Positions 1 through 20,355 of a stretch of DNA of 28,980 bases are shown one piece after another. Made by a program: the position numbers and the translations under genes. The notes under the pieces are model-generated. The model was given only the letters and a program-made list of their open reading frames with translations, was not told the origin of the DNA and did no database searches. Where the stretch lies: the IMG/VR virus record IMGVR_UViG_2574180275_000003; one strand, given 5' to 3'. Origin of the DNA: a virus. Its lineage: Duplodnaviria > Heunggongvirae > Uroviricota > Caudoviricetes. Numbering within the stretch: the stretch's first letter is position 1; each line of letters starts with the position of its first letter.

Positions 1-123
1 ACCAGCCCCCGACTGGCAGACACCGCTGAACGGGATTATTTCACCCTCAGAGAGCGGCTGATGACGATGCAGATGCAACTGGAAGGGGCACAGGAGTATA
101 TCCGCACTCAGTGCATTAAGTAG
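1..123 (+). CDS. hypothetical protein, C-terminal end only (5' part lies outside the window)
   Basis: Frame 1 is open from position 1 to TAG at 121-123 (41 codons, ...DYFTLRERLMTMQMQLEGAQEYIRTQCIK*); the other two plus frames hit stops early. No family recognised. Confidence 0.3.
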   Translation, partial: TSPRLADTAERDYFTLRERLMTMQMQLEGAQEYIRTQCIK

Positions 124-165
124 CCTTTTTATCGTGGTAAACATTTCGCAGGGTATGAGGTATTT

Positions 166-516
166 ATGCCATCACGAATCCCACGCGCCTGCCGTAAGCG
201 TGGATGTGCAGGTACAACCACAGACAGTTCTGGTTACTGCGATAAACATCGTGGCGAAGGATGGGTACAGCATCAACGCGGACTGAGCCGCCACCAGCGT
301 GGCTATGGCTCGAAATGGGATGCCATACGTGCGCGCATACTGAAGCGTGATAATCATCTGTGTCAGAACTGCCTGCGCAATGGGAGAGCCGTTGAAGCCA
401 GAACTGTGGACCACATCATTCCGAAAGCTCATGGTGGCACGGATGCAGACAGTAACCTGCAGAGTCTGTGCTGGCCCTGTCATAAAGCAAAAACAGCGCG
501 CGAACGCATCAATTGA
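166..516 (+). CDS. HNH endonuclease, phage packaging-associated
   Basis: 116 aa with Cys pairs and the motif DHIIPKAHGG...LCWPCH; GAGGT RBS 6 nt upstream of ATG; sits directly upstream of terS/terL as in HK97-like cos phages. Confidence 0.85.
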   Translation: MPSRIPRACRKRGCAGTTTDSSGYCDKHRGEGWVQHQRGLSRHQRGYGSKWDAIRARILKRDNHLCQNCLRNGRAVEARTVDHIIPKAHGGTDADSNLQSLCWPCHKAKTARERIN

Positions 517-664
517 TAACAGTTCCCATCTGTAGGGGAGGGGCGGGTCAAATCTCTGCAACCCTGGCTGCTCAGTACCGCCGCCTGACCCTTCCTCACA
601 TCGCCGCAGGTTCGAAAACTTTTTTTTGGAAATGTGAACAAACGATTGATAGGTAAGACCGATT
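517..664. promoter_or_regulatory. candidate cos / terminase recognition region of the prophage (HNH-terS spacer)
   Basis: Non-coding 148 bp between HNH and terS with a G-rich block (ggggaggggcgggtca), accgccgcctgaccc and a T8 run; same architecture as the HNH-terS spacer of the inserted element (14750-15037). Assignment by position only. Confidence 0.3.
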
Positions 665-1147
665 ATGTCAGGACCTCCGAAAACCCCGCCACGCCTGCAT
701 TTGATTCGAGGCAACCCCTCAAAGCGCCCCGTTAAAGACCACAAAAAAACCGCTAAAAAGGATGAAAAAGGTCTTCCTAAAATTCCGCAGCATTTAGGGG
801 CTCAGGGGAAGTACTGGTTCAGGCGAATGGCGGAAGAGCTGAATGCGGAAGGGATCATTTCTCAGCTTGATGCGCGTGCGCTCGAGTTGCTGGTGGAAGC
901 CTACACCGAATATCGGCATCACTGCGAAACACTCGATGTTGAGGGGTATACCTACCGCACGGAAACGCAGAGCGGTGATGTACTGATTAAGGCGCACCCC
1001 GCGGCGGCAATGAAAGCGGATGCCTGGAAGCGGATCCGGGCAATGCTTGCAGAGTTTGGTATGTCACCGGCAAGCCGGGCTAAAGTAAATATCGCCGGAC
1101 CGGATGATGTTGATCCGCTGGCGGAGCTTTTAAAAGCGAGAGACTGA
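665..1147 (+). CDS. terminase small subunit (P27-like family)
   Basis: 160 aa starting MSGPPKTPPRLHLIRGNPSKRP; stop overlaps the terL start (TGATG); paralogous to the second terS at 15038-15394. Confidence 0.8.
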   Translation: MSGPPKTPPRLHLIRGNPSKRPVKDHKKTAKKDEKGLPKIPQHLGAQGKYWFRRMAEELNAEGIISQLDARALELLVEAYTEYRHHCETLDVEGYTYRTETQSGDVLIKAHPAAAMKADAWKRIRAMLAEFGMSPASRAKVNIAGPDDVDPLAELLKARD

Positions 1148-2340
1148 TGGCAAAAGTGGCTGACGGGATCCGCTACGCCGAACGTGTTGTTGCAGGAGAA
1201 ATTGTTGCTGGCGAATTTGTCCGCCTGGCCTGCCAGCGTTTTCTTGATGATCTGAAGTACGGCGAAGAGCGGGGGATTTATTTCAGTGAACCCCGTGCGC
1301 AGCACATCCTGAATTTCTACAAATTTGTGCCTCATGTAAAAGGGGCGCTGGCAGGCCAGCCCATTGAGTTGATGGACTGGCATGTATTTATCCTCATTAA
1401 TATTTTTGGTTTTGTCATTCCGCTGGTCAATGAAGAGACCGGGGAAGTTGTCATGCGCAGCGATGGCAGCGGACGTCCGGTGATGGTGCGCCGGTTCCGG
1501 ACGGCGTACAACGAAGTCGCCCGTAAAAACGCAAAATCAACTCTGTCATCGGGTATCGGCCTGTATATGACGGGGGCAGATGGTGAAGGCGGAGCTGAGG
1601 TGTATTCAGCCGCAACCACGCGTGACCAGGCCAGAATCGTGTTTGAAGACGCCAAAAATATGGTCAGAAAAGCCCGGTCGACACTCGGGCGGTTGTTTGA
1701 TTTCAACAAGCTGGCGATTTACCAGGAGCAGAGCGCATCAAAATTTGAACCGCTTTCTTCGGATGCAAACAACCTGGATGGTCTGAACATCCACTGCGCC
1801 ATTATTGATGAGCTGCATGCACATAAAACTCGTGACGTGTGGGACGTTCTGGAAACGGCAACCGGTGCCCGTCTGCAGTCCCTTTTATTTGGTATCACCA
1901 CGGCAGGGTTTAACAAGGAAGGGATTTGTTACGAGCAGCGTGATTACGCCATCAAGGTATTGCGTGGCTATAACAGCGACGTGGAGGGCGCGGTAAAAGA
2001 CGACTCCTACTTTGCGATTATTTACACCCTCGATGAGGGAGATGATCCGTTTGATGAAACGGTCTGGCAGAAAGCGAATCCCGGCCTGGGCATCTGTAAA
2101 CGCTGGGATGATCTGCGTCGCCTGGCGAAAAAAGCGAAAGAACAGGTCTCTGCGCGGGTGAATTTTTTTACCAAGAAAGTAACATCACGCCGTAACAACA
2201 GTGCGACCTGTCCTGATTTTTTTAGTAACCAAATGAAAGAAAAAGATTTTTTCTTGTTCGTCGTTTTTGTTTTTTCTGGATGGTTCTGGCTGTTTTCATC
2301 ATTTGTGTATTGCACTGTGTATTGCAAAAACGGGTTATAA
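1147..2340 (+). CDS. terminase large subunit, N-terminal portion; ORF interrupted near 2172-2175 by the integrated element, last ~55 codons are read-through into element DNA
   Basis: Residues 1-342 align with the N-terminal half of the intact TerL at 15378-17039 (PHVKGALAGQPIEL / PHVKGAMRGSPIEL, ARKNAKST / PRKNAKST, RDQARIVFEDAK / RDQARIVFDDAR). After ...ARVNFFTK the translation becomes low-complexity (FLFVVFVFSGWFWLF) and the matching C-terminal half is found at 17561-18292. Confidence 0.8.
   Translation: MAKVADGIRYAERVVAGEIVAGEFVRLACQRFLDDLKYGEERGIYFSEPRAQHILNFYKFVPHVKGALAGQPIELMDWHVFILINIFGFVIPLVNEETGEVVMRSDGSGRPVMVRRFRTAYNEVARKNAKSTLSSGIGLYMTGADGEGGAEVYSAATTRDQARIVFEDAKNMVRKARSTLGRLFDFNKLAIYQEQSASKFEPLSSDANNLDGLNIHCAIIDELHAHKTRDVWDVLETATGARLQSLLFGITTAGFNKEGICYEQRDYAIKVLRGYNSDVEGAVKDDSYFAIIYTLDEGDDPFDETVWQKANPGLGICKRWDDLRRLAKKAKEQVSARVNFFTKKVTSRRNNSATCPDFFSNQMKEKDFFLFVVFVFSGWFWLFSSFVYCTVYCKNGL
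2168..2174. repeat. attL core (TTACCAA), left junction of the element
   Basis: Same 7-mer recurs at 17556-17562; in both copies ACC falls in the same terL codon phase (2170-2172 and 17558-17560). Confidence 0.6.
2305..2325 (+). promoter_or_regulatory. integrase arm-type binding repeats (left end)
   Basis: Tandem GTGTATTGCACTGTGTATTGC about 130 bp inside the left core and 20 bp upstream of int; near-identical copy at 17460-17480. Confidence 0.5.
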
Positions 2341-2345
2341 ATCAC

Positions 2346-3554
2346 ATGGCGCTAAACAAACTGAGCGATAAAAAACTTCGTTCCCTGCTTGGGCGCAGGA
2401 GTGAGAGGCAGGAAACCATCGCTGATGGTAACGGGCTTTCGGTACGGGTCAGTAAATACGGATGTGTTAGTTTTGTTTTCTTTTACAGACTGGCGGGAAG
2501 GGGAACCGCGCCCATCTGGCTGACACTTGGAAAATATCCTGATCTGAGTCTCAAATCAGCGAGAGAGATGCGCGATCAGTGTCGAACCTGGCTTGCGGAG
2601 GGCAGAGATCCACGGATTCAGATAAAAATTGAACGGGAAGCCACCTTGCAACCTGTTACCGTTCGTGAGGCACTTGAATACTGGCTTGATAATTATGCAA
2701 TGGATAAGCGTAGGGGAGCAGAACATATCAGGCAGTGCTTTGGTAAACATATTTATCCGGTGATTGGTCATGTACCACTTAGTGATTGCTCTATATCTAT
2801 GTGGATCAAGTGTTTTGACAAAATAAAAAAAGTAGCACCTGTACAGGCCGGAGCTTTGTTGCGTATATCAAAACAGGCGCTTAAATTTTGTAGGGTAAGA
2901 AAATACGCGATTAGTCATGAAATTGATGATCTTGAGGTCTGTGATGTGGGAAAAAAGTCTGCGCGAAGAAGCAGGGTTTTAACAGATGATGAAATCAGAG
3001 ATTTATGGCGAAGTATTAATACTGATTATGACAATCACGAATTATCATATGAAAACCGAATTATTTTACGTTTCCTGGTAGTTTTTGGTTGTCGACTGTC
3101 AGAAGTATTACTGTCGTCCTGGGTAGAGTGGGATTTTGATAAGAAATTATGGCGCGTTCCCGCTGATCATAGCAAAAATGGCAGGGAAATAATCAGACCG
3201 ATTCCTGATGGCATGTTTAACTGGTTAGTTACGTTAAAAAAAATAACAGGTAACAAAGAAAATGTGATTGGGTTTGATATGCGTCAGTGTACGGCAAGCG
3301 TAACTATCGGTAAGACATGGAAAAGGATGAAACACTCGGAAAAATGGACGGCGCATGATATGCGAAGAGTGTTTGCCACAAAGCTAAGTGATCATGGTTT
3401 TGAACATAATGTGGTTGAACAGTTGCTTGGGCACACATTAGGCGGTGTTGCCGGGGTTTATAACAGAAGTCAGTATATGGACAGAAAAAAAGAAGCTATG
3501 AACTGGTGGTACGACTATCTGAATAAGCTAATTAGTGGTGACGGTAATGATTGA
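2346..3554 (+). CDS. int: tyrosine site-specific integrase, P4-like with N-terminal arm-binding domain
   Basis: Start taken at internal ATG 2346 (MALNKLSDKKLRSLLG...), the usual integrase N-terminus; C-terminus has HDMRR...LLGHTLGGVAGVYNRSQY (catalytic His/Arg/Tyr). The track ORF starts at 2280 inside the att region. Confidence 0.9.
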   Translation: MALNKLSDKKLRSLLGRRSERQETIADGNGLSVRVSKYGCVSFVFFYRLAGRGTAPIWLTLGKYPDLSLKSAREMRDQCRTWLAEGRDPRIQIKIEREATLQPVTVREALEYWLDNYAMDKRRGAEHIRQCFGKHIYPVIGHVPLSDCSISMWIKCFDKIKKVAPVQAGALLRISKQALKFCRVRKYAISHEIDDLEVCDVGKKSARRSRVLTDDEIRDLWRSINTDYDNHELSYENRIILRFLVVFGCRLSEVLLSSWVEWDFDKKLWRVPADHSKNGREIIRPIPDGMFNWLVTLKKITGNKENVIGFDMRQCTASVTIGKTWKRMKHSEKWTAHDMRRVFATKLSDHGFEHNVVEQLLGHTLGGVAGVYNRSQYMDRKKEAMNWWYDYLNKLISGDGND

Positions 3555-3768
3555 AATAGTTACGCGTGAAGAACTTGAAAATGATAAAACAATCGACAGG
3601 ATGATTAAGGAAGATGAATGTGCATGGTTAACAGCTCTTGGCAGGAGACACAGAGCATTACTTGAAAAGGAAGGAAAATTTCCACGGAAAATATGTATTG
3701 GCCCACAAACAAAAGTCTGGCGCTTATCTGAGGTGCTGGAATGGGTAAAGGGTGAATGGAAACCCTGA
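3547..3768 (+). CDS. alpA: AlpA-family transcriptional regulator / excisionase-like protein
   Basis: About 73 aa with ...LLEKEGKFPRKICIGPQTKVWRLSEVLEWV, the AlpA/Xis HTH pattern; start overlaps the int stop; followed by a terminator. Confidence 0.65.
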   Translation: MIEIVTREELENDKTIDRMIKEDECAWLTALGRRHRALLEKEGKFPRKICIGPQTKVWRLSEVLEWVKGEWKP

Positions 3769-3791
3769 ACTAAATTAAATGAGATATAATC

Positions 3792-3817
3792 AACCCGTCT
3801 TTTGGCGGGTTTTTTTA
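3792..3817 (+). terminator. Rho-independent terminator-like hairpin after alpA
   Basis: AACCCG-(8 nt loop)-CGGGTT followed by a T7 run. Confidence 0.5.
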
Positions 3818-3831
3818 TAGGTGATATTTTT

Positions 3832-4110
3832 ATGCAAAAATTTATTTATCCTACACCCGAAGAACGCATTCAGATTCTGAAAGATCATGGCGAACCGTAT
3901 GATCGCCGTATACGCGAACATGAGTGTGCCAATCGTACCGGGCTTTCAAGAAGCAGACGTTGGGTACTTGAACAGGAGGGAGCATTTCCTGCTCGTGCTC
4001 ATTTAGGGAAAGTGTCTGTTTCCTGGTTGCTCTCTGATGTGCTCTGGTGGGTTATGCATCCGCCAGGAGTAAAGGAAGTAAACAGCCCATACAAAAACGC
4101 CAATAAGTAA
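3832..4110 (+). CDS. second AlpA-like HTH regulator
   Basis: 92 aa from ATG 3832 (GGTGA RBS 7 nt upstream); contains TGLSRSRRWVLEQEGAFPARAHLGKVSVSWLLSDVLWWV, resembling the AlpA HTH region. Confidence 0.5.
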   Translation: MQKFIYPTPEERIQILKDHGEPYDRRIREHECANRTGLSRSRRWVLEQEGAFPARAHLGKVSVSWLLSDVLWWVMHPPGVKEVNSPYKNANK

Positions 4111-4118
4111 TTACCGAC

Positions 4119-4148
4119 AACCCCGCACCACGCAATGCGGGGTTTTTT
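4119..4148 (+). terminator. Rho-independent terminator-like hairpin
   Basis: AACCCCGCA-(7 nt)-TGCGGGGTT followed by TTTTTTG. Confidence 0.55.
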
Positions 4149-4167
4149 GTATGTGAGGTAGAAAGTG

Positions 4168-4746
4168 ATGAATAAAAATATTGCCGTGACGGGCAAGGGT
4201 GACGCACGTCATGTGAAAAAATTCTGTGATATTCGTGATCTGGTCGTTCTGCGCTTTGATGGCGTGGATGTTCGTGTGGTGTATCTAAACGGCGATCCGT
4301 GGTTTGTTGCAAAGGATGTTTGTGCTGCGCTGGAACTGACCAATTCGCGTACGGCGTTGCAGATGCTTGATGATGACGAAAAGGGAGTAAATTTAACTTA
4401 CACCCCCGGAGGAAATCAGAATATGAGCATTATCTCCGAGTCAGGTTTCTACAAACTAATAGCCCGCAGCCGCAAAGCAACGACGCCTGGCACATTTGCT
4501 CATCGTTTCAGTAACTGGGTATTCAGAAATGTGATACCGGGTATCAGAAAAACGGGGGCTTATGGTATCCCGTGGGGCGCATTACAGGATTTTTCCCGCC
4601 GCAAAGAGCAATACCAGATAAGTGCCAGTGAGAAGGGGAGGGAGCTACAGGCATGTAAGCGCAAAAAGCGTGAGCTGGAGGAAGAAGAAAAAAGGCTGAT
4701 ACGTGAATACCAGCCTGAGTTTTACTTTGGTGAGCGTATTCAGTAA
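4168..4746 (+). CDS. Bro-N domain protein (antirepressor-like)
   Basis: 192 aa; N-terminal RFDGVDVRVVYLNGDPWFVAKDVCAALEL...ISESGFYKLIARSRK matches the Bro-N pattern; GAGGTAG RBS 6 nt upstream of ATG 4168. Confidence 0.7.
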   Translation: MNKNIAVTGKGDARHVKKFCDIRDLVVLRFDGVDVRVVYLNGDPWFVAKDVCAALELTNSRTALQMLDDDEKGVNLTYTPGGNQNMSIISESGFYKLIARSRKATTPGTFAHRFSNWVFRNVIPGIRKTGAYGIPWGALQDFSRRKEQYQISASEKGRELQACKRKKRELEEEEKRLIREYQPEFYFGERIQ

Positions 4747-5032
4747 CCACACGCGGTGTTGATTATACGGTACATCGTGTTGACCGGGAAGCTACCCACC
4801 AGCAAGGCAAAATCTTCTGCTAAAAAATGACATATGGCCAGTCGTCCGGAAAGCATGAAATTTTACAAAAATGGAAAATGAAGATTTTTATTGTGCTGGT
4901 GGGTAAAAACAAAAAGCGCCCCGTTGCCGGAGCGCCCTTGCGAACAATTAACCTACTGCGCAAAAAATGAATCTGTGCGGGGGAATTATATCAACCGCGT
5001 GGAGAAGCGCCACAATTGCCGAATAACAGGCA

Positions 5033-5061
5033 AAACAAAGGCCACCCGCTACGGTGGCCCT
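5033..5061 (-). terminator. terminator-like hairpin for leftward transcription
   Basis: Perfect inverted repeat GGCCACC-cgctac-GGTGGCC at 5042-5061; on the minus strand it is followed by TTTGTTTTG. Confidence 0.4.
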
Positions 5062-5098
5062 TCAACACAAGCTACACGTTATCCCCAACGCATGAGCA

Positions 5099-5311
5099 TT
5101 ACCGACAATGCCACATTTGCGGCTGGTGGGCAATGTGATCAGTCAGATTTGGTTCGTTCCAAGGTTTGCAACGAGAGCTTTTCCTGTGCTCTTTAAGGAA
5201 TTGCTCAAGGGCAAAAGCACATGGCGCGAATCTTTCTGATTCATGCTCTATCTTTCTGCGCCGTCTTTTCCGTGTCGGTGATAATGTTTTGGTCAATTCT
5301 TTATCGGTCAT
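5099..5311 (-). CDS. hypothetical small basic protein (start at MTDKE...)
   Basis: 70 codons with AGGA 7 nt upstream of the ATG at 5311-5309; lies between the Arc-like gene and the minus-strand hairpin. No family recognised. Confidence 0.3.
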   Translation of the reverse strand: MTDKELTKTLSPTRKRRRRKIEHESERFAPCAFALEQFLKEHRKSSRCKPWNEPNLTDHIAHQPQMWHCR

Positions 5312-5368
5312 TGTGTTGTCCTGCATAGCAATGCGCCGTAATACCTTACACCACGGCGCTGGTGATGG

Positions 5369-5674
5369 TTATTCCTGCTCTTTGGCCTTGCGACGCTGGA
5401 GTTCTTCACGTGCGACGGTGACGAGCTGCCCGATCTCCTCGACAGCTTTGACTCCGATTTTTTCCACCTGCGCCAGCGCATCGAGCGAAGAAACCAGGGG
5501 ATTTTCTCCGCTTCCTTCTGCCTGGCGGCGGGCGATCTCACCGCGTACAGCCGTAACTATAAAATTCGCTTTAGTTTCCCCTGGCTGTAGGGATGCCTCA
5601 ATGCCACTCACTACTTCATGTGGAAATCTGGCATTCAGTTGCTGTGATTTATTGTTAACAGAACTCGTGGACAT
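5369..5674 (-). CDS. Arc/MetJ-type ribbon-helix-helix DNA-binding protein (candidate repressor of the element)
   Basis: Start at internal ATG 5674-5672 with GGAGGTG RBS; N-terminus ...QQLNARFPHEVVSGIEASL resembles the Arc beta-strand motif (FNLRWPREV); divergent from the rightward replication operon. Confidence 0.55.
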   Translation of the reverse strand: MSTSSVNNKSQQLNARFPHEVVSGIEASLQPGETKANFIVTAVRGEIARRQAEGSGENPLVSSLDALAQVEKIGVKAVEEIGQLVTVAREELQRRKAKEQE

Positions 5675-5717
5675 GTTTGCACCTCCGATTAATAACGGGA
5701 TGCAGTGTAATACAAAA

Positions 5718-5772
5718 GTGAATACCAAAAAAGACTTGAAATGGTATTCACCAAAATGTAATCTGAATACCA
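5718..5772. promoter_or_regulatory. operator-like inverted repeats in the divergent promoter region
   Basis: GTGAATACCA (5718-5727) and its reverse complement TGGTATTCAC (5742-5751), plus a third half-site TGAATACCA (5764-5772), 45-100 bp upstream of the Arc-like start. Confidence 0.45.
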
Positions 5773-5873
5773 CAAGGGCTGATACATGCAATTCAGCAAT
5801 TGAAACGACGAAGCCCCGCACTGTTGGAGCAGTAACGGGGCTTCTAACCAAACCGTTAACTGGAGTAACGATT

Positions 5874-6074
5874 ATGGCTGTAAGACAGCATACCCCACGA
5901 CTTGCGCACACACAAACGGTCTTTGTGTGGCGTTTTCTGGCACTAAGTGCCGGAGAATCTCAAATCGTCCACGTAACCGCCTGGACGGAACGCGAAGCGC
6001 GTAACCGTTGCCCGTCCGGTTGTGTCGCTGTATTCGCCGCCCGTATTCGTCAGGGGGTGCGCCATGTGCAATAA
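5874..6074 (+). CDS. Icd-like small protein (host cell division inhibitor-like family of P4-type elements)
   Basis: 66 aa from ATG 5874 (GGAG about 8 nt upstream): MAVRQHTPRLAHTQTVFVWRFLAL...TAWTEREARNRCPSGCVAVFAARI, matching my memory of Icd-like proteins. It is the 3' end of the long track ORF 5166-6074, whose 5' part is antisense to the Arc-like gene. Confidence 0.45.
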   Translation: MAVRQHTPRLAHTQTVFVWRFLALSAGESQIVHVTAWTEREARNRCPSGCVAVFAARIRQGVRHVQ

Positions 6075-6303
6075 AAACACGCCGGACGCAGCCGCCGAAG
6101 CCATCAAAACGCTAATGCACGCGCTGATTGATATTTCATGCACGGCAGCAACCGCAGAAAAACACATTACCAGAGAGCCGGAATATACAGGGGCGATAAT
6201 CCCGCATTCACTGGCATACGCACAGCTTACCGCTGATATGGCACTGAATGAGGCCAGGGCTATCCTGATTGCTGATTGTGAAAATGGGGGGGGTTATGCG
6301 TGA
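6064..6303 (+). CDS. hypothetical protein
   Basis: 79 aa from ATG 6064 (AGGGGGTG upstream); overlaps neighbours on both sides, suggesting operon coupling. Confidence 0.4.
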   Translation: MCNKNTPDAAAEAIKTLMHALIDISCTAATAEKHITREPEYTGAIIPHSLAYAQLTADMALNEARAILIADCENGGGYA

Positions 6304-6529
6304 TGATCGTTTTAATGCCCTGAAACAGGAATTTGATGGCGCACCGGAACATACAGGCGATGCGTTGTTATGCGTTGCCGACATGATGAAAGCCGCATTT
6401 TTTCTTATCAGTACCAGTGGCTACAGGTCAGAGGGTGTGGAGATTCTCAATATTGCGTCGGACTATGCGGAATATGTTGCAGAGGCGCGTTACAGAAGAA
6501 AATTCCCGGAGGATGTAAGCCATGGATAA
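6296..6529 (+). CDS. hypothetical protein
   Basis: 77 aa from ATG 6296 preceded by a G7 run; overlaps the previous stop. Confidence 0.4.
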   Translation: MRDDRFNALKQEFDGAPEHTGDALLCVADMMKAAFFLISTSGYRSEGVEILNIASDYAEYVAEARYRRKFPEDVSHG

Positions 6530-6665
6530 AATCCCTTTCGATGTTCTTATTCATTCTGAGAATGCATTAATCAGGGCGCTTGAATTAAAAACGGTACTGG
6601 ATGAATTAACCGAAAATAACACCGAGCGGGGGGGTATTTACTTTCTGCTTTCAGCACTCTGTTAA
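6522..6665 (+). CDS. hypothetical small protein (47 aa)
   Basis: ATG 6522 with GGAGGA 9 nt upstream, overlapping the previous stop; MDKIPFDVLIHSENALIRALELKTVLDELTENNTERGGIYFLLSALC. Below the ORF track size cutoff. Confidence 0.25.
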   Translation: MDKIPFDVLIHSENALIRALELKTVLDELTENNTERGGIYFLLSALC

Positions 6666-6735
6666 CCCCGGTTATTGATGAATTAAACGCGGTTATGGAA
6701 ATGCACGACAAGACCCGCGCAGAGGAATAAAAACC

Positions 6736-7050
6736 ATGAAAAAGAAAAATTCTGGCTTTACTGCCAGCGGCCTCCCTCGGCCTGAAATCCGCCCCGACGA
6801 TATTTTCAAAGATAAATACGGCGGACGAATAACGATAAAAACCGTTGACGATTTTCGCGTGACTTATATCCGCGAAGGTTATGCGCATCCCTGCGTGTCG
6901 TCTCATATGCGTTTTGAGAGTGAATTCACCCTGGTAAGCAAAGCACCACCAGCGAACTTAAGCGACATCGACAGAATCATGCGCGTTACAGGTATGGAAC
7001 GCATTAAGGCAGTACGTGAAATTATTCGTGAACGGGGAAAGGCAAAATGA
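6736..7050 (+). CDS. hypothetical protein (possibly DUF4222-like), coupled to the primase gene
   Basis: 104 aa; GAGGAA RBS 8 nt upstream; stop overlaps the primase start (ATGA). Family call is a tentative recollection. Confidence 0.45.
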   Translation: MKKKNSGFTASGLPRPEIRPDDIFKDKYGGRITIKTVDDFRVTYIREGYAHPCVSSHMRFESEFTLVSKAPPANLSDIDRIMRVTGMERIKAVREIIRERGKAK

Positions 7051-15394: not shown

Positions 15395-17039
15395 GTACGC
15401 AGAAGGCGTAAAAAACGGCAAAATTACGGCCTGTAAACGACTGAAACAGGCCGTTAAACGGTATTTTTCTGACCTTGAAAACCCCCTTTACACGTTCGAT
15501 CCGGAGGTCGTGGAGCGGTTTATTGCCTTTTCCAGGGTGTGTCCGCACGTAAAAGGCGCAATGCGCGGTAGCCCCATTGAGCTGGAGCCGTGGCAGCAGT
15601 TCGCCTTTGCGTGCATCCTGGGCTTTAAGGTTAAGGCCACCGGACGGCGCAAATACACCAGCGCATTCATTGAAGTGCCGCGAAAAAATGCCAAATCCAC
15701 GGTCGCCGCTATCCTGGCTAACTGGTTTCTGGTTATGGAAAACGGGCAGCAGGATATTTACACCGCCGCCGTGAGTCGTGATCAGGCGCGGATCGTGTTT
15801 GATGATGCGCGTCAGATGTGCCTTTTATCCCGACCGTTGCGAAAGCGGGTAAATATTCAGGCACACAAGGTGATACACCCGAAAACCAACAGCCTGTTAA
15901 AGCCACTGGCAGCAAAAGCGGCAACCATTGAAGGTACAAACCCGAGTCTTGCCATTGTGGATGAATATCACCTGCACCCTGACAACGGGGTTTATTCCGC
16001 GCTTGAACTGGGAATGGGGGCGCGTCCGGAGGGGTTATTATTTGCCATCACCACATCGGGGAGCAACGTTGTTTCAGCCTGTAAACAACACTACGACTAT
16101 TGCTGCCAGATACTGGATGGTGAAGAGGTGAACGAATCCATGTTCGTGCTGATTTACGAGCTGGATGATGAAAGCGAGGTTGACGATCCGGCGATGTGGA
16201 TAAAGGCGAATCCCAATATCGATGTTTCCGTCGATCGTGAAAAACTGGCCTCAACCATCCAGAAAGCGCGGGGTATTCCGTCGCAGTGGGTGGAAATGCT
16301 CACCAAGCGATTCAATATCTGGTGTCAGGGGGCCACGCCGTGGATGGGTAACGGTGCATGGGCGGAGTGCGCCGGAACGTTCGCGGAGGCGGATTTATAC
16401 GGGCAGGAGTGCTACGCGGGGCTGGACTTATCATCAACCAGCGATATTTCCAGCGTGTGCTATGCCTTTCCGGTCGGTAAAAAGATTATGCTGGTTTCCC
16501 GTCACTATCTGCCGGAATTTCAGCTACAGAACCCCGCCAATAAAAACCGCGCCATCTATCGCCAGTGGGTAAAGGCGGGCTGGATACGCACAACACCGGG
16601 TGACTGCATTGATTATGACCGTATCCGTGATGACATCATGGCGGATGCAGAGAATTTCAATATCAGGCTGGTGGGTTTCGATACATGGAACGCCACGCAC
16701 CTGAGGACGCAGCTACAGGGCGCAGGATTTGAGGTGGAGCCGTTCCCGCAAACATACCTTCGTTTCAGTCCGGCGGCGAAATCGTTCGAAGTTTTTGTTA
16801 ACCGGAAGGTGATTGTGCATCGTGGTGATCCGGTGCTGGCCTGGTCAATGAGTAATGTTGTGATGCAGAGTGACGCGAACGCCAATATCAAGCCGAACAA
16901 GAAAAAATCATCCAACAAGATAGACCCGAGCGTTGCGGCGCTGATGGCGTTTGGCACATTCCAGGCAGAACATGAGGAATTTGCATTCGATATGAGCGAC
17001 AGCCACAAAGAGCGGCTTGCGACGTTTGATGGTGTGTAA
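15378..17039 (+). CDS. terminase large subunit (intact)
   Basis: 553 aa; apparent TTG start at 15378 with GAGGAAGAGGA upstream, overlapping the terS 3' end; aligns across its whole length with the two prophage terL fragments. Confidence 0.9.
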   Translation: MTAWHEYAEGVKNGKITACKRLKQAVKRYFSDLENPLYTFDPEVVERFIAFSRVCPHVKGAMRGSPIELEPWQQFAFACILGFKVKATGRRKYTSAFIEVPRKNAKSTVAAILANWFLVMENGQQDIYTAAVSRDQARIVFDDARQMCLLSRPLRKRVNIQAHKVIHPKTNSLLKPLAAKAATIEGTNPSLAIVDEYHLHPDNGVYSALELGMGARPEGLLFAITTSGSNVVSACKQHYDYCCQILDGEEVNESMFVLIYELDDESEVDDPAMWIKANPNIDVSVDREKLASTIQKARGIPSQWVEMLTKRFNIWCQGATPWMGNGAWAECAGTFAEADLYGQECYAGLDLSSTSDISSVCYAFPVGKKIMLVSRHYLPEFQLQNPANKNRAIYRQWVKAGWIRTTPGDCIDYDRIRDDIMADAENFNIRLVGFDTWNATHLRTQLQGAGFEVEPFPQTYLRFSPAAKSFEVFVNRKVIVHRGDPVLAWSMSNVVMQSDANANIKPNKKKSSNKIDPSVAALMAFGTFQAEHEEFAFDMSDSHKERLATFDGV

Positions 17040-17120
17040 CGGAATGGATGAGAGAGGACAATGCTCATTTAATGGAATAAATTTTCAGTATTATCGGCAC
17101 CCACTTTCAGGGATGTTTTT

Positions 17121-17272
17121 GCGGGTTATTTGAGGACGGGGGCGGGTTATTTTGAATGTCTTGCGGGTTATATTCTGGCTGATATCTAGATACGTTGTTT
17201 TTTAACGCATTGATATTAAAGAGTAAAAAATACTTAGCACGCGAAGATAACCCGCTAACCCGCATAACCCGC
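17121..17272. repeat. iteron cluster 2 (same 9-mer as cluster 1), candidate second cis-acting replication site
   Basis: GCGGGTTAT at 17121, 17142 and 17163 (21-bp spacing), AT-rich spacer, then ATAACCCGC / TAACCCGC / ATAACCCGC contiguous at 17247-17272. Confidence 0.6.
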
Positions 17273-17459
17273 ACTGTTTTGTATATATATACGAAAAATT
17301 GCATTCAGGGGGGGGATCGAAATTTCTACTGCCTCTTATCTCTTTGAGTGCTCACCTCGTCAGATTGTTACACACAAGAAATAAAAAATGCTTCGCGATG
17401 GTAGGTCGAATCACTGTATCAAAAAACGGTGTGTATCAGCATTAAAACAATACAGATAC

Positions 17460-17480
17460 GTGTATTGCGCTGTGTATTGC
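17460..17480 (+). promoter_or_regulatory. integrase arm-type binding repeats (right end)
   Basis: GTGTATTGCGCTGTGTATTGC, same motif and orientation as 2305-2325, about 75 bp inside the right core. Confidence 0.5.
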
Positions 17481-17555
17481 TTGATGATTTATAAAGACTG
17501 TTTTTTCATGTTAAACGATTGATATACAGGTGATTTTAAAAAACTTGAAATATTC

Positions 17556-17562
17556 TTACCAA
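17556..17562. repeat. attR core (TTACCAA), right junction of the element
   Basis: Identical to 2168-2174; the downstream codons AAA CAC ATG AAT GTG continue the terL frame. Confidence 0.6.
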
Positions 17563-17566
17563 ACAC

Positions 17567-18292
17567 ATGAATGTGTGGGTAACAGCAGAGTCTGCCTGGA
17601 TGGACATGATTAAGTGGGATAAGTGCGAATACATTGCCCCACGACATGAGCTGAAAACGTATCCCATGTGGGTCGGCGTTGACCTTGCTCATAAGATTGA
17701 TATCTGTGCGGCGGCAAAACTCTGGCGAACGGATAACGGGCATGTTCATGCCGATTTTAAATTCTGGCTTCCGGAAGGACGGCTGGAACGATGCTCGCGG
17801 CAGCAGGCAGAACTTTACCGGAAGTGGGCGGAGATGGATAAGCTGATTCTGACGGATGGTGATGTTATCGATCATGCTCAGATAAAAAGTGACTTACTGG
17901 AATGGATTGGTGGTGAAAACCTCAGGGAACTGGGATTTGACCCGTGGAGCGCGATGCAGTTCAGCCTGGCACTGGCTGAAGAAGGGATACCGCTGGTGGA
18001 GGTTCCGCAGACGGTTCGCAATCTGTCAGAGGCCATGAAGGAAACGGAATCACTGGTCTATGCCGGGCGTTTCCATCACAGCAATCATCCGGTCATGAAC
18101 TGGATGATGTCTAACGTTACGGTAAAACCGGACAAAAACGACAATATCTTCCCGAATAAATCCACGCTGGAAGCCAAAATCGACGGCCCTGTTGCGATGT
18201 TTACAGCAATGAGCCGGATGCTGGTCAATGGTGGTGAACCGGAGCTGGATCTGTCTGAACATCTGGTCAGCGTGGGCATCCGCTCGCTTTAA
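17567..18292 (+). CDS. terminase large subunit, C-terminal portion (nuclease domain); frame is open from the att core at 17558
   Basis: Aligns with the C-terminal half of the satellite TerL ([16 protein letters not shown] / KRFNIWCQGATPWMGN onward); together with 1147-2172 it makes one ORF of about 585 codons. Confidence 0.8.
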
Positions 18293-18303
18293 CCGAGGTC
18301 ATT

Positions 18304-18486
18304 ATGTTTCTGATAATTCTCGCGCCACTGGTGGGCGTGCTGGGGGCGCTTTTGCTGGCGTATGGTGCCTGGCTGATTTATCCCCCGGCGGGTTTTGTTG
18401 TTGCCGGGGTGCTGTGCCTGTTCTGGTCGTGGCTGGTGGCGCGATATCTCGACCGTACACAGCCGTCTGTCGGCGGAGGTAAATAG
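18304..18486 (+). CDS. small membrane protein (two predicted transmembrane helices)
   Basis: 60 aa, [26 protein letters not shown]...[26 protein letters not shown]; wedged between terL and portal. Confidence 0.5.
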
Positions 18487-19727
18487 TGTTCTTTTCGGGA
18501 TTATTTCAACGAAAAAGTGATGCGCCGGTGACCACGCCAGCAGAGCTGGCGGATGCCATCGGGTTGTCTTACGACACCTATACCGGAAAGCAGATCAGCA
18601 GTCAGCGGGCCATGCGACTGACGGCGGTTTTTTCCTGCGTCAGAGTGCTGGCAGAGTCGGTCGGGATGTTGCCCTGCAATCTGTATCACCTGAACGGCAG
18701 CCTGAAACAGAGGGCCACCGGCGAACGTCTGCATAAGCTGATCTCCACGCATCCCAATGGCTATATGACGCCGCAGGAGTTCTGGGAGCTGGTGGTCACC
18801 TGTCTGTGCCTGAGGGGAAACTTTTACGCCTACAAAGTGAAAGCATTTGGCGAAGTGGCTGAACTGCTGCCCGTCGATCCCGGTTGTGTGGTACCGAAGC
18901 TTAACAGTCGCTGGGAGCCGGTCTATCAGGTCACATTCCCGGACGGTTCCACGGATGTACTGAGCCAGGAAGATATCTGGCATGTGCGCACGCTGACGCT
19001 GGACGGTCTGGTGGGACTGAATCCCATCGCCTATGCCCGCGAGGCAATATCGCTGGCAGCAGCGACCGAAGAGCACGGGGCCAGACTGTTCAGCAATGGT
19101 GCGGTGACGTCCGGTGTGTTGCGTACAGAACAGACGCTGTCGGATCAGGCTTATGAGCGCCTGAAGAAAGATTTTGAGGAGCGTCACACCGGGCTTGGCA
19201 ATGCTCACCGCCCGATGATCCTTGAGATGGGGCTGGACTGGAAGTCGATGGCGCTGAACGCCGAGGACAGCCAGTTCCTGGAAACCCGCAAGTTTCAGCT
19301 TGAAGAAATCTGTCGTCTGTTCCGGGTGCCGTTGCACATGGTGCAGAACACCGATCGCGCCACCTTCAACAATATCGAAGAGCTGGGGCTCGGATTTATC
19401 AACTATTCACTGGTGCCGTATCTGACCCGCATCGAACAGCGGATCAACACCGGACTGGTACGAAAAAGTAAGCAGGGCGTTTATTACGCCAAATTTAACG
19501 CCGGGGCGTTACTGCGCGGGGATATGAAGTCCCGTTTTGAAGCCTACGCCACCGGGATTAACTGGGGAATTTACTCTCCCAATGACTGCCGCGACCTGGA
19601 AGATATGAATCCGCGTCCCGGTGGTGATGTCTATCTCACACCGATGAACATGACCACGAAACCCTCCGATGGCAGTAAAGCCGGTAAGCAGAAGGATAAC
19701 GCCAATGCAGACGAAACAACGTCTTGA
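18486..19727 (+). CDS. portal protein
   Basis: 413 aa, GTG start with GGAGGT RBS, overlapping the preceding stop by 1 nt; homologous to the satellite portal. Confidence 0.85.
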   Translation: MFFSGLFQRKSDAPVTTPAELADAIGLSYDTYTGKQISSQRAMRLTAVFSCVRVLAESVGMLPCNLYHLNGSLKQRATGERLHKLISTHPNGYMTPQEFWELVVTCLCLRGNFYAYKVKAFGEVAELLPVDPGCVVPKLNSRWEPVYQVTFPDGSTDVLSQEDIWHVRTLTLDGLVGLNPIAYAREAISLAAATEEHGARLFSNGAVTSGVLRTEQTLSDQAYERLKKDFEERHTGLGNAHRPMILEMGLDWKSMALNAEDSQFLETRKFQLEEICRLFRVPLHMVQNTDRATFNNIEELGLGFINYSLVPYLTRIEQRINTGLVRKSKQGVYYAKFNAGALLRGDMKSRFEAYATGINWGIYSPNDCRDLEDMNPRPGGDVYLTPMNMTTKPSDGSKAGKQKDNANADETTS

Positions 19728-20355
19728 TGTACCGCTGAGTCTGAAATCTGTCAGTGACTCCGGTGAGTTTGAAGGGTATGGCTCCGTCTTTGGTGTAAAG
19801 GACAGCCACGATGATGTGGTGATGTCCGGGGCATTTGCTGCTTCCCTGCGGGCGTGGAGTGACAGAAAAGCGTTACCTGCGCTGCTCTGGCAGCACCGCA
19901 TGGATGAACCCATCGGTGTTTACACCGAAATGAAGGAAGACGATGTCGGGCTTTACGTCAGGGGACGGTTGCTTATTGATGATGATCCCCTCGCAAAACG
20001 CGCACATGCACACATGAAGGCCGGTTCGTTAACCGGCCTTTCTATTGGGTACGTCCTGAAAGACTGGGAATACGACCGGAGCAAAGAAGCCTTTCTGCTG
20101 AAAGAAATCGACCTCTGGGAAGTCAGCCTGGTGACGTTCCCGTCTAACGACGAGGCGCGGATCAGCGACGTCAAGAACGCACTGGCCCGCGGGGAAATCC
20201 CCGAACAGAAAAAAATCGAAAGAGTCCTGCGTGATGTCGGACTCTCCCGTACCCAGGCCAAAGCATTCATGGCCGGGGGCTATGGCGCACTGTCCCTGCG
20301 CGACGCTGAGGATGTGGGCTCTGCACTGAATGCACTGAAAAATCTGAACTTCTAA
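19705..20355 (+). CDS. prohead protease, HK97 family
   Basis: Start at internal ATG 19705 (MQTKQRLDVPL...) with AAGGA RBS; overlaps the portal 3' end; homologous to the satellite protease. Confidence 0.8.
   Translation: MQTKQRLDVPLSLKSVSDSGEFEGYGSVFGVKDSHDDVVMSGAFAASLRAWSDRKALPALLWQHRMDEPIGVYTEMKEDDVGLYVRGRLLIDDDPLAKRAHAHMKAGSLTGLSIGYVLKDWEYDRSKEAFLLKEIDLWEVSLVTFPSNDEARISDVKNALARGEIPEQKKIERVLRDVGLSRTQAKAFMAGGYGALSLRDAEDVGSALNALKNLNF

Follow-up and report, generated by a model that had tools for sequence, protein, structure and literature searches.

A YmfR-family membrane hairpin gene between terL and portal: probably a standing part of the HK97-type head module in one phage clade rather than an inserted moron

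Introduction

Does the small gene found between the large terminase gene (terL) and the portal gene of the prophage studied here belong to the head module in which it lies, or was it inserted there as cargo? The question is raised by a 28,980-nucleotide stretch of DNA (IMG/VR record IMGVR_UViG_2574180275_000003, Caudoviricetes), which is referred to at its full length as the window. In a preliminary description, made from the letters of the DNA and its open reading frames, it was reasoned that packaging modules of the HK97/lambda type normally go straight from terminase to portal, and that a short ORF encoding two hydrophobic helices at this place looked like a moron, for example a superinfection exclusion factor. 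Small inner-membrane proteins of phages with such a role are known, as in the case of HK97 gp15 and T4 Imm. Small hairpins are also found among the class II holins and pinholins (e.g., S68 of phage 21), which are about 60-70 amino acids long and have two transmembrane helices with both ends inside, stripes of small residues and a charged, variable C-terminal tail.

Results

The ORF, its neighbours and its family

A 60-codon ORF with its own ribosome binding site was found between the prophage terL and the portal gene, just as had been described, and the two flanking genes were each recognized by a Pfam match (Table 1). The terL part is a 3' fragment that RefSeq labels 'terminase TerL endonuclease subunit, missing N-terminus'; its homology begins at about position 17550, and its first in-frame ATG lies at 17567. 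The gap from the terL stop to the start of the ORF is 11 nt in the window, and in the Halomonadaceae the two genes overlap by 7 nt. TGAGG or CGAGG is kept at the Shine-Dalgarno place of the ORF in enterobacterial homologues. At the other end, the TAG stop of the ORF shares its G with the GTG start of portal, and GGAGG, GGGGG or GAGG is found at the portal Shine-Dalgarno place in the homologues. By this arrangement the ORF is translationally coupled both to terL upstream and to portal downstream. A frameshift fusion of the small protein with portal was considered and found to be impossible, because a TAA (18480-18482) closes the portal frame immediately ahead of the GTG, a situation shared by the homologues. 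The ORF was also ruled out as a split-off N-terminus of portal, since the portals of phages lacking the ORF have hydrophilic N-terminal extensions. The MFxPxMF-type start of the portal protein has a similar form in phages without the ORF as well.

Table 1. Features of the ymfR locus and of the island ends, in window positions
Feature	Position	Strand	Remarks
Left imperfect 14-nt repeat AATTTTTTTACCAA	2161-2174	.	Island end
Right imperfect 14-nt direct repeat AATATTCTTACCAA	17549-17562	.	Island end
Prophage terL 3' fragment, nuclease domain	17567-18292	+	Pfam TerL_nuclease E=5e-37; stop TAA 18290-18292
Shine-Dalgarno GAGG of ymfR	18294-18297	+	6 nt before ATG; read from sequence
ymfR CDS	18304-18486	+	ATG at 18304, TAG 18484-18486; 60 codons plus TAG
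YmfR helix 1, residues 2-25	18307-18378	+	Hydropathy, AlphaFold2, column conservation
YmfR tight turn Y26-P-P-A-G30	18379-18393	+	AlphaFold2, alignments, conservation
YmfR helix 2, residues 31-47	18394-18444	+	AlphaFold2, column conservation
YmfR variable hydrophilic tail, residues 48-60	18445-18483	+	Alignments; pooled pN/pS 0.90
Portal Shine-Dalgarno GGAGG	18475-18479	+	Within ymfR Gly58-Gly59 codons; read from sequence
Portal gene, GTG start	18486-19727	+	Pfam Phage_portal E=5e-108; HK97-family

The product of the ORF matched the PHROG 502 'membrane protein' profile with an E-value of 1.6e-27, residues 1-55 aligning with positions 3-57 of the 58 in the profile, and close copies are named 'protein YmfR' in RefSeq, after a gene of the e14 prophage of E. 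coli K-12. YmfR of e14 and other members of PHROG 502, namely SfII_03, Sb3 of ST64B and the 'putative integral membrane protein' of phiP27, likewise have 60 residues and are encoded between terL and portal. The window protein is 92-98% identical to the common E. coli versions, from which it differs at F2, L3, I4, V36 and P54. The ORF is hence an already annotated and very common prophage gene of a known family, and we regard it as close to certain that it is YmfR (PHROG 502) and not a moron.

The family proved to be large. Matches to YmfR at E<=1e-3 were found in 163 clusters, with identities of 58-98%, and a profile search returned 301 clusters at E<=1e-5, nearly all of them 50-70 aa long and none with a functional name or a Pfam domain. 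Across the classes of Proteobacteria the length of the protein stays between 54 and 67 aa. One metagenome representative of 122 aa (P0141) looks like a tandem duplicate in which a single protein holds two hairpin units. In E. coli, ymfR is present in 1385 of 5426 complete genomes (at least 80% nucleotide identity), with up to four copies per genome, and it is carried by phages SfI, SfII, SfIV, ST64B, phiP27, 118970_sal3 and phi467, where it is labelled as a membrane or hypothetical protein. Scans of YmfR with Pfam, NCBIfam and PADLOC gave no family, and sequence and fold searches of the PDB gave nothing meaningful, the best fold being the hairpin of V-ATPase subunit e (E=1.4). A literature search on ymfR, on small membrane proteins between terminase and portal, on SfII, SfIV and ST64B, and on phrog_502 returned gene lists only and no functional work.

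For the analysis of selection, 62 distinct nucleotide versions of ymfR out of 111 loci were compared. In the annotated frame the helix region (residues 2-47) had a median pairwise dN/dS of 0.27 (pooled, 0.36), as against medians of 1.1 and 2.2 in the two shifted frames, and this difference between frames argues that ymfR is a real protein-coding gene and more than a chance ORF. The entropies at codon positions 1, 2 and 3 were 0.58, 0.33 and 1.04, the third position being the most variable. Among about 190 loci a lone disrupted copy was seen, in Shigella flexneri CP182557 (L097, 4001-4216). This copy is frameshifted, encodes 71 aa and is out of frame after residue 27, and the terL (585 aa) and portal (413 aa) frames around it are full length.

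Relation to the satellite island

The prophage terL of the window is split by an island of about 15.4 kb (2161-17562). The ends of the island were placed by means of the intact terL of vB_EcoM-606R7, which maps to window positions 1-2174 and 17549-19048 with a 14-nt overlap. The right-end repeat lies 742-755 nt upstream of the ymfR ATG, in good agreement with the distance of about 740 bp to the satellite junction that had been given before. The island holds genes for an integrase, regulators, a DUF927 primase-like protein, an SSB, a major capsid protein, a protease, a portal, head closure and connector proteins, an HNH protein, terS and a 553-aa terL; since it has a capsid, protease, portal, connector, HNH, terS and terL of its own, it was taken to be a capsid-forming satellite. 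Excision of the island would be expected to restore terL. A RefSeq-annotated E. coli locus with 98.9% identity is a lambdoid prophage (HNH, P27-type terS, terL) whose terL is likewise interrupted by the island, and a stretch spanning the right junction (window 17000-19800) is matched over 80% or more of its length in 261 complete E. coli genomes. Phages that lack the island carry ymfR at the same position. The gene is thus not tied to the satellite, and for the window this means that it is an ordinary prophage gene rather than satellite-linked cargo. A 61-aa ORF of the satellite, located between HNH and terS, was examined as a possible relative of YmfR and rejected, as its product is hydrophilic and unrelated.

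Two minor observations concern the surroundings of terL. The segment between the stop codon of the island terL and the right junction (17040-17566) is AT-rich (GC 0.37) and holds no annotated gene in the near-identical RefSeq locus, although in another strain the terL is closely followed by a hypothetical ORF of 94 aa; the segment may hold attachment or regulatory sequences of the island. In addition, four 'phage' records of 11-21 kb, ON470586, ON470600, ON470607 and ON470621 (vB_EcoS-611R1, -569R6, -733R4 and -716R1), match the terL 3' fragment only (window 17549-18235, about 95%) and not ymfR or portal, and the portal of one of them is just 29% identical to that of the window. These records may represent satellites or partial prophages using this type of terL.

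Linkage to the portal gene

In all 31 informative loci of a set drawn from one-genome-per-species contigs, the order was TerL, the small ORF and portal, with portal proteins 35-99% identical to that of the window. The hosts of these loci included Escherichia, Shigella, Edwardsiella, Mangrovibacter, Scandinavium, Erwinia, Serratia, Lonsdalea and Citrobacter, as well as several Halomonadaceae, Martelella and an Alcaligenaceae MAG. The ymfR stop and the portal start overlapped by 1 or 4 nt in 28 of the 31. The order was also seen in Vibrio phage K265, Yersinia phage P840/PY54 and Ralstonia phage YO102_2, in contigs from soil and other metagenomes, and in contigs from the ocean and the bee gut, so that homologues of YmfR with this arrangement are found in phages of gamma-, beta- and alphaproteobacteria. 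In the ocean and bee-gut contigs (L213-L216) the distant hairpin-portal pairs adjoin a prohead protease of the S49 (SppA/ClpP-like) type and not of the HK97 type. This S49 protease has a weak NfeD-like match at its N-terminus, and the HNH, the Terminase_4 terS and TerL are unchanged in these contigs.

A comparison with phage SfII was informative. Between the window and SfII, nucleotide identity sets in about 15 nt ahead of the terL stop, the remainder of terL showing no relation; with the joint placed just before the terL stop, ymfR therefore stays with portal when the terminase genes are swapped. Portal identity above 70% was combined with terL identity below 45% in 33 pairs of loci. Correlations of identity did not discriminate between the two neighbours (YmfR vs portal, r=0.76; YmfR vs terL, r=0.74) and were less informative than the SfII mosaic joint. 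The tail of SfII is contractile and that of the window prophage is lambda-like, and ymfR therefore belongs to the head module. Taken together, these arrangements indicate that ymfR travels with portal through exchange of terL, protease or tail modules, and that it has a fixed place in the head modules of one HK97-type clade instead of being an insertion.

An ORF resembling ymfR is absent, and terL abuts portal, in HK022, Pseudomonas phi2, Providencia PSTRCR_117lys, Klebsiella KpF5, Clostridium phi3626, Bacillus z1a and NatCom_3357, and Moraxella Mcat29 has a short gap between terL and portal with no ymfR-like ORF in it. All the absences fell in lineages whose portal had an identity of about 35% or lower. 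The portal of strain CPE35, which at first appeared to lack ymfR, was dismissed as an exception, the locus being a deletion remnant. Thus, the view that terminase is followed directly by portal holds for phages of the HK97/HK022 type and fails for the portal clade studied here.

A set of 80 IMG/VR loci was chosen only by portal (at least 99% identity) and contained two different terL 3' ends. A comparison of related prophages had been proposed in the preliminary description as a check in which the ORF might turn out to be missing; in 80 of the 80 loci it was intact, with 60 codons and with its TAG overlapping the portal start. A consensus scan of the + strand for a promoter driving ymfR gave a single site, at 18289-18317, which ends past the ATG, although weak or atypical promoters could escape such a scan. 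No flanking terminator was found; the sole terminator-like hairpin lies within the ORF, is not conserved and has a z of about -1 against shuffled sequences. In SfII a 'putative rho-independent terminator' (L115 2370-2419, corresponding to window positions of about 18312-18361) is annotated inside ymfR. It was ruled out as a conserved element, since it is absent from distant homologues and no more stable than shuffles, and the hairpin derives from the GC-rich Gly, Ala and Leu codons of the gene. The GC3 of ymfR (0.656) is close to that of portal (0.669) and of the major capsid protein gene (0.637). Judged by its layout, ymfR appears to be a late-operon gene without signals of its own. One published observation bears on expression: ymfR of e14 was reported to rise along with other genes of that prophage under stress that induces the SOS response (PMC10012262). 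A lytic gene behaves in this way.

The claim that the gene had been inserted as a moron was consequently abandoned, as the ORF is intact in every one of these relatives, showed no such signals in the scan, has a GC3 like that of portal and is coupled to it. A moron is not supported by any of the testable features, and the 'moron' category in which PHROGs places family 502 is a label that the present analysis corrects.

The predicted protein

Two hydrophobic segments were found in YmfR, at residues 2-25 (mean Kyte-Doolittle hydropathy, 2.39) and 31-46 (2.31). An AlphaFold2 model built with a 35-sequence alignment had helices at residues 2-25 and 27-52, broken at YPPAG, with a mean pLDDT of 75.6. 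The earlier description of a membrane protein with two hydrophobic helices was thereby upheld, and from hydropathy and the model YmfR should be a 60-aa helical hairpin that sits in the inner membrane. The YPPAG turn is predicted to be periplasmic and both ends of the protein cytoplasmic by the positive-inside rule, because the sole conserved basic residues come after helix 2.

Helix 1 is conserved at G11, G14, S/A19, G21, A22 and W23, and helix 2 carries a small-residue stripe of A34/G35, C38, S42 and A46, with R/K47 at its end. Among homologues as distant as about 35% identity, G14 and G35 never vary and G11, G21, W23 and G30 hardly do; positions 19, 22, 29, 34, 42 and 46 retain small residues, and helix 2 is followed by a basic one. 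The stripes of small residues suggest tight packing of the helices, with each other in copies of YmfR itself or with a host membrane protein. The hydrophilic tail evolves in an almost neutral manner except for its final Gly codons. Since these codons coincide with the GGAGG of portal, the invariant C-terminal Gly-Gly is probably conserved at the nucleotide level. What is conserved in the protein itself lies almost entirely in its membrane part.

Discussion

A pairing with portal as strict and as old as this one is what morphogenetic genes typically show, and for this reason a role in the assembly of the portal was considered. It is proposed, tentatively and as a reading that is more probably wrong than right, that YmfR is a late, portal-coupled inner-membrane hairpin that aids portal or prohead assembly at the membrane. 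After induction, ribosomes finishing terL would go on to translate YmfR, and the hairpin would insert with both its ends in the cytoplasm. It might then pack, either with itself or with a host membrane protein, through the faces formed by G11/G14/S19/G21/A22 and A34/G35/C38/S42/A46, before the same ribosomes resume translation at the portal start. New portal protein could be placed at the inner membrane either by the hairpin itself or by the mRNA and ribosome tethered there, and portal or prohead assembly might thereby be started at the membrane. As one statement, comprising the identity of the gene, its being a fixed head gene and this mechanism of assembly, the account is plausible but still doubtful.

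In phage T4 the portal initiator gp20 is bound to the membrane and depends on gp40 (PMC9958956; PMC3185693), but T4 is so far the only phage in which proheads have been shown to assemble in association with the membrane (PMC3185693), which weighs against the proposal for YmfR. The likeness of YmfR to gp40, an inner-membrane phage protein helping to start the portal vertex (PMC9958956), is one of functional analogy only; there is no sequence relation between the two (hhalign probability, 0.3%), and gp40 differs in having 114 residues, in being acidic with a basic C-terminus and no transmembrane helix, and in being encoded far from gene 20. Further points stand against a role of YmfR in assembly. 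Because every strongly conserved residue lies within the membrane and the 13-residue cytoplasmic tail is almost neutral (pN/pS 0.90), the protein has no obvious conserved surface for binding portal, and many phages of the HK97 type, including HK022, phi2 and phi3626, build their heads without ymfR. The tight linkage of ymfR to portal could alternatively reflect an old insertion at a module border that has since become fixed. That the YmfR family serves a large HK97-type clade specifically as membrane factors that initiate the portal or prohead is an extension that we consider unlikely. If it were true, membrane-started head assembly, shown so far only in T4, would be extended to common temperate phages of Proteobacteria, and a gene carried by a quarter of E. 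coli genomes would gain a function. The point of wider interest is that a membrane hairpin and portal remain paired and coupled in translation, which offers a concrete clue.

Exclusion, the role suggested by the preliminary description, would have YmfR acting in a moron-like manner in the inner membrane, where it would block the entry of superinfecting phage DNA or alter a host membrane protein. Small phage membrane proteins are, as is generally known, often exclusion factors, and the PHROGs category of family 502 ('moron, auxiliary metabolic gene and host takeover') points the same way. Conservation limited to the membrane part would fit binding to a host membrane protein, and ymfR is intact in the e14-like remnants L084 and L086, in which terL and portal are truncated. 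A 183-nt ORF is, however, expected to survive by chance in a remnant, and the converse case is seen in the Shigella copy, which is frameshifted beside intact terL and portal. The absence of a driving promoter from the scan and of a conserved terminator, the composition equal to that of portal, the constant presence of the ORF in the 80 portal-selected relatives and the behaviour of the e14 gene as an induced lytic gene (PMC10012262) all argue against a moron-like factor. Furthermore, exclusion of entry should match the tail or entry route, whereas ymfR keeps to the head module however much the tails differ. There was no PADLOC match at E<=1 and no Imm_superinfect or other Pfam match above threshold. 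T4 Imm has hydrophobic helices, as does YmfR, but no similarity in sequence, the hhalign probability being 0.2%. From morons of the HK97 gp15 type, going by how gp15 is generally described, YmfR is set apart by its linkage to the head and by the lack of testable moron features. An exclusion role is accordingly judged to be quite improbable.

Little more favour can be given to a holin or viroporin-like role, which we take to be improbable and in which the hairpin would oligomerise late in the inner membrane and tune the membrane potential or the timing of lysis, as an auxiliary holin or antiholin. The size of YmfR, its two helices with both ends predicted to be inside, its charged and variable C-terminal tail and its small-residue stripes are all in keeping with such a protein, and membrane-confined conservation would fit the packing of a homo-oligomer. 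Class II holins are encoded in lysis cassettes, however, whereas ymfR is flanked by terL and portal, and no family match links the two. The gene does not adjoin an endolysin gene; SfII has a full set of holin, endolysin and spanin genes (S-R-Rz-Rz1) elsewhere, at 37.5-38.8 kb, and the lysozyme and Rz genes of the prophage relative L001 lie upstream of HNH-terS. No holin family was matched in Pfam, PHROGs or NCBIfam at E-values up to 10, and a role in lysis would leave the strict linkage and coupling to portal without a reason.

YmfR might also be a minor virion or ejection protein, present in a few copies at the portal and released at infection to aid the passage of DNA across the inner membrane; its gene lies in the structural operon beside portal, and coupling would have it made at portal-like low levels. 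An almost wholly hydrophobic protein has no soluble form in which it could be loaded into the prohead, however, and YmfR is combined with both sipho and myo tails, which have membrane-crossing proteins of their own. No report of virion proteomics was found in the searched literature, and this role is considered very improbable. Hardly credible is the proposal that the ORF is a spacer with no protein function, serving only to couple portal to terL translation and to carry the portal Shine-Dalgarno motif. The conserved stop/start overlap and internal Shine-Dalgarno motif, the explanation of the invariant Gly-Gly by GGAGG and the nearly neutral tail would be expected of a spacer. Purifying selection on the helices in the ymfR frame only, the invariance or near invariance of G11, G14, G21, W23, G30 and G35 down to about 35% identity and a length kept at 54-67 aa across Proteobacteria classes would not.

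YmfR was also compared with gpW of phage lambda, which is similar in size and encoded in the same slot, lambda gene W sitting between the large terminase and portal genes. The lambda protein, which functions in head-tail joining, is soluble, unlike the hydrophobic hairpin of YmfR, and no match of YmfR to the gpW family was found in Pfam at E-values up to 10. The label 'head-tail joining protein W' is nonetheless attached to ymfR in ON470580, ON470584, ON470603 and PQ793804, and looks like an annotation made by position. In the first of these records, that of vB_EcoM-606R7 (L208), the ymfR labelled W extends from 3256 to 3438 and portal from 3618 to 4679, the latter having been given an internal start that lies 180 nt beyond the overlapping GTG used in RefSeq and in SfII.
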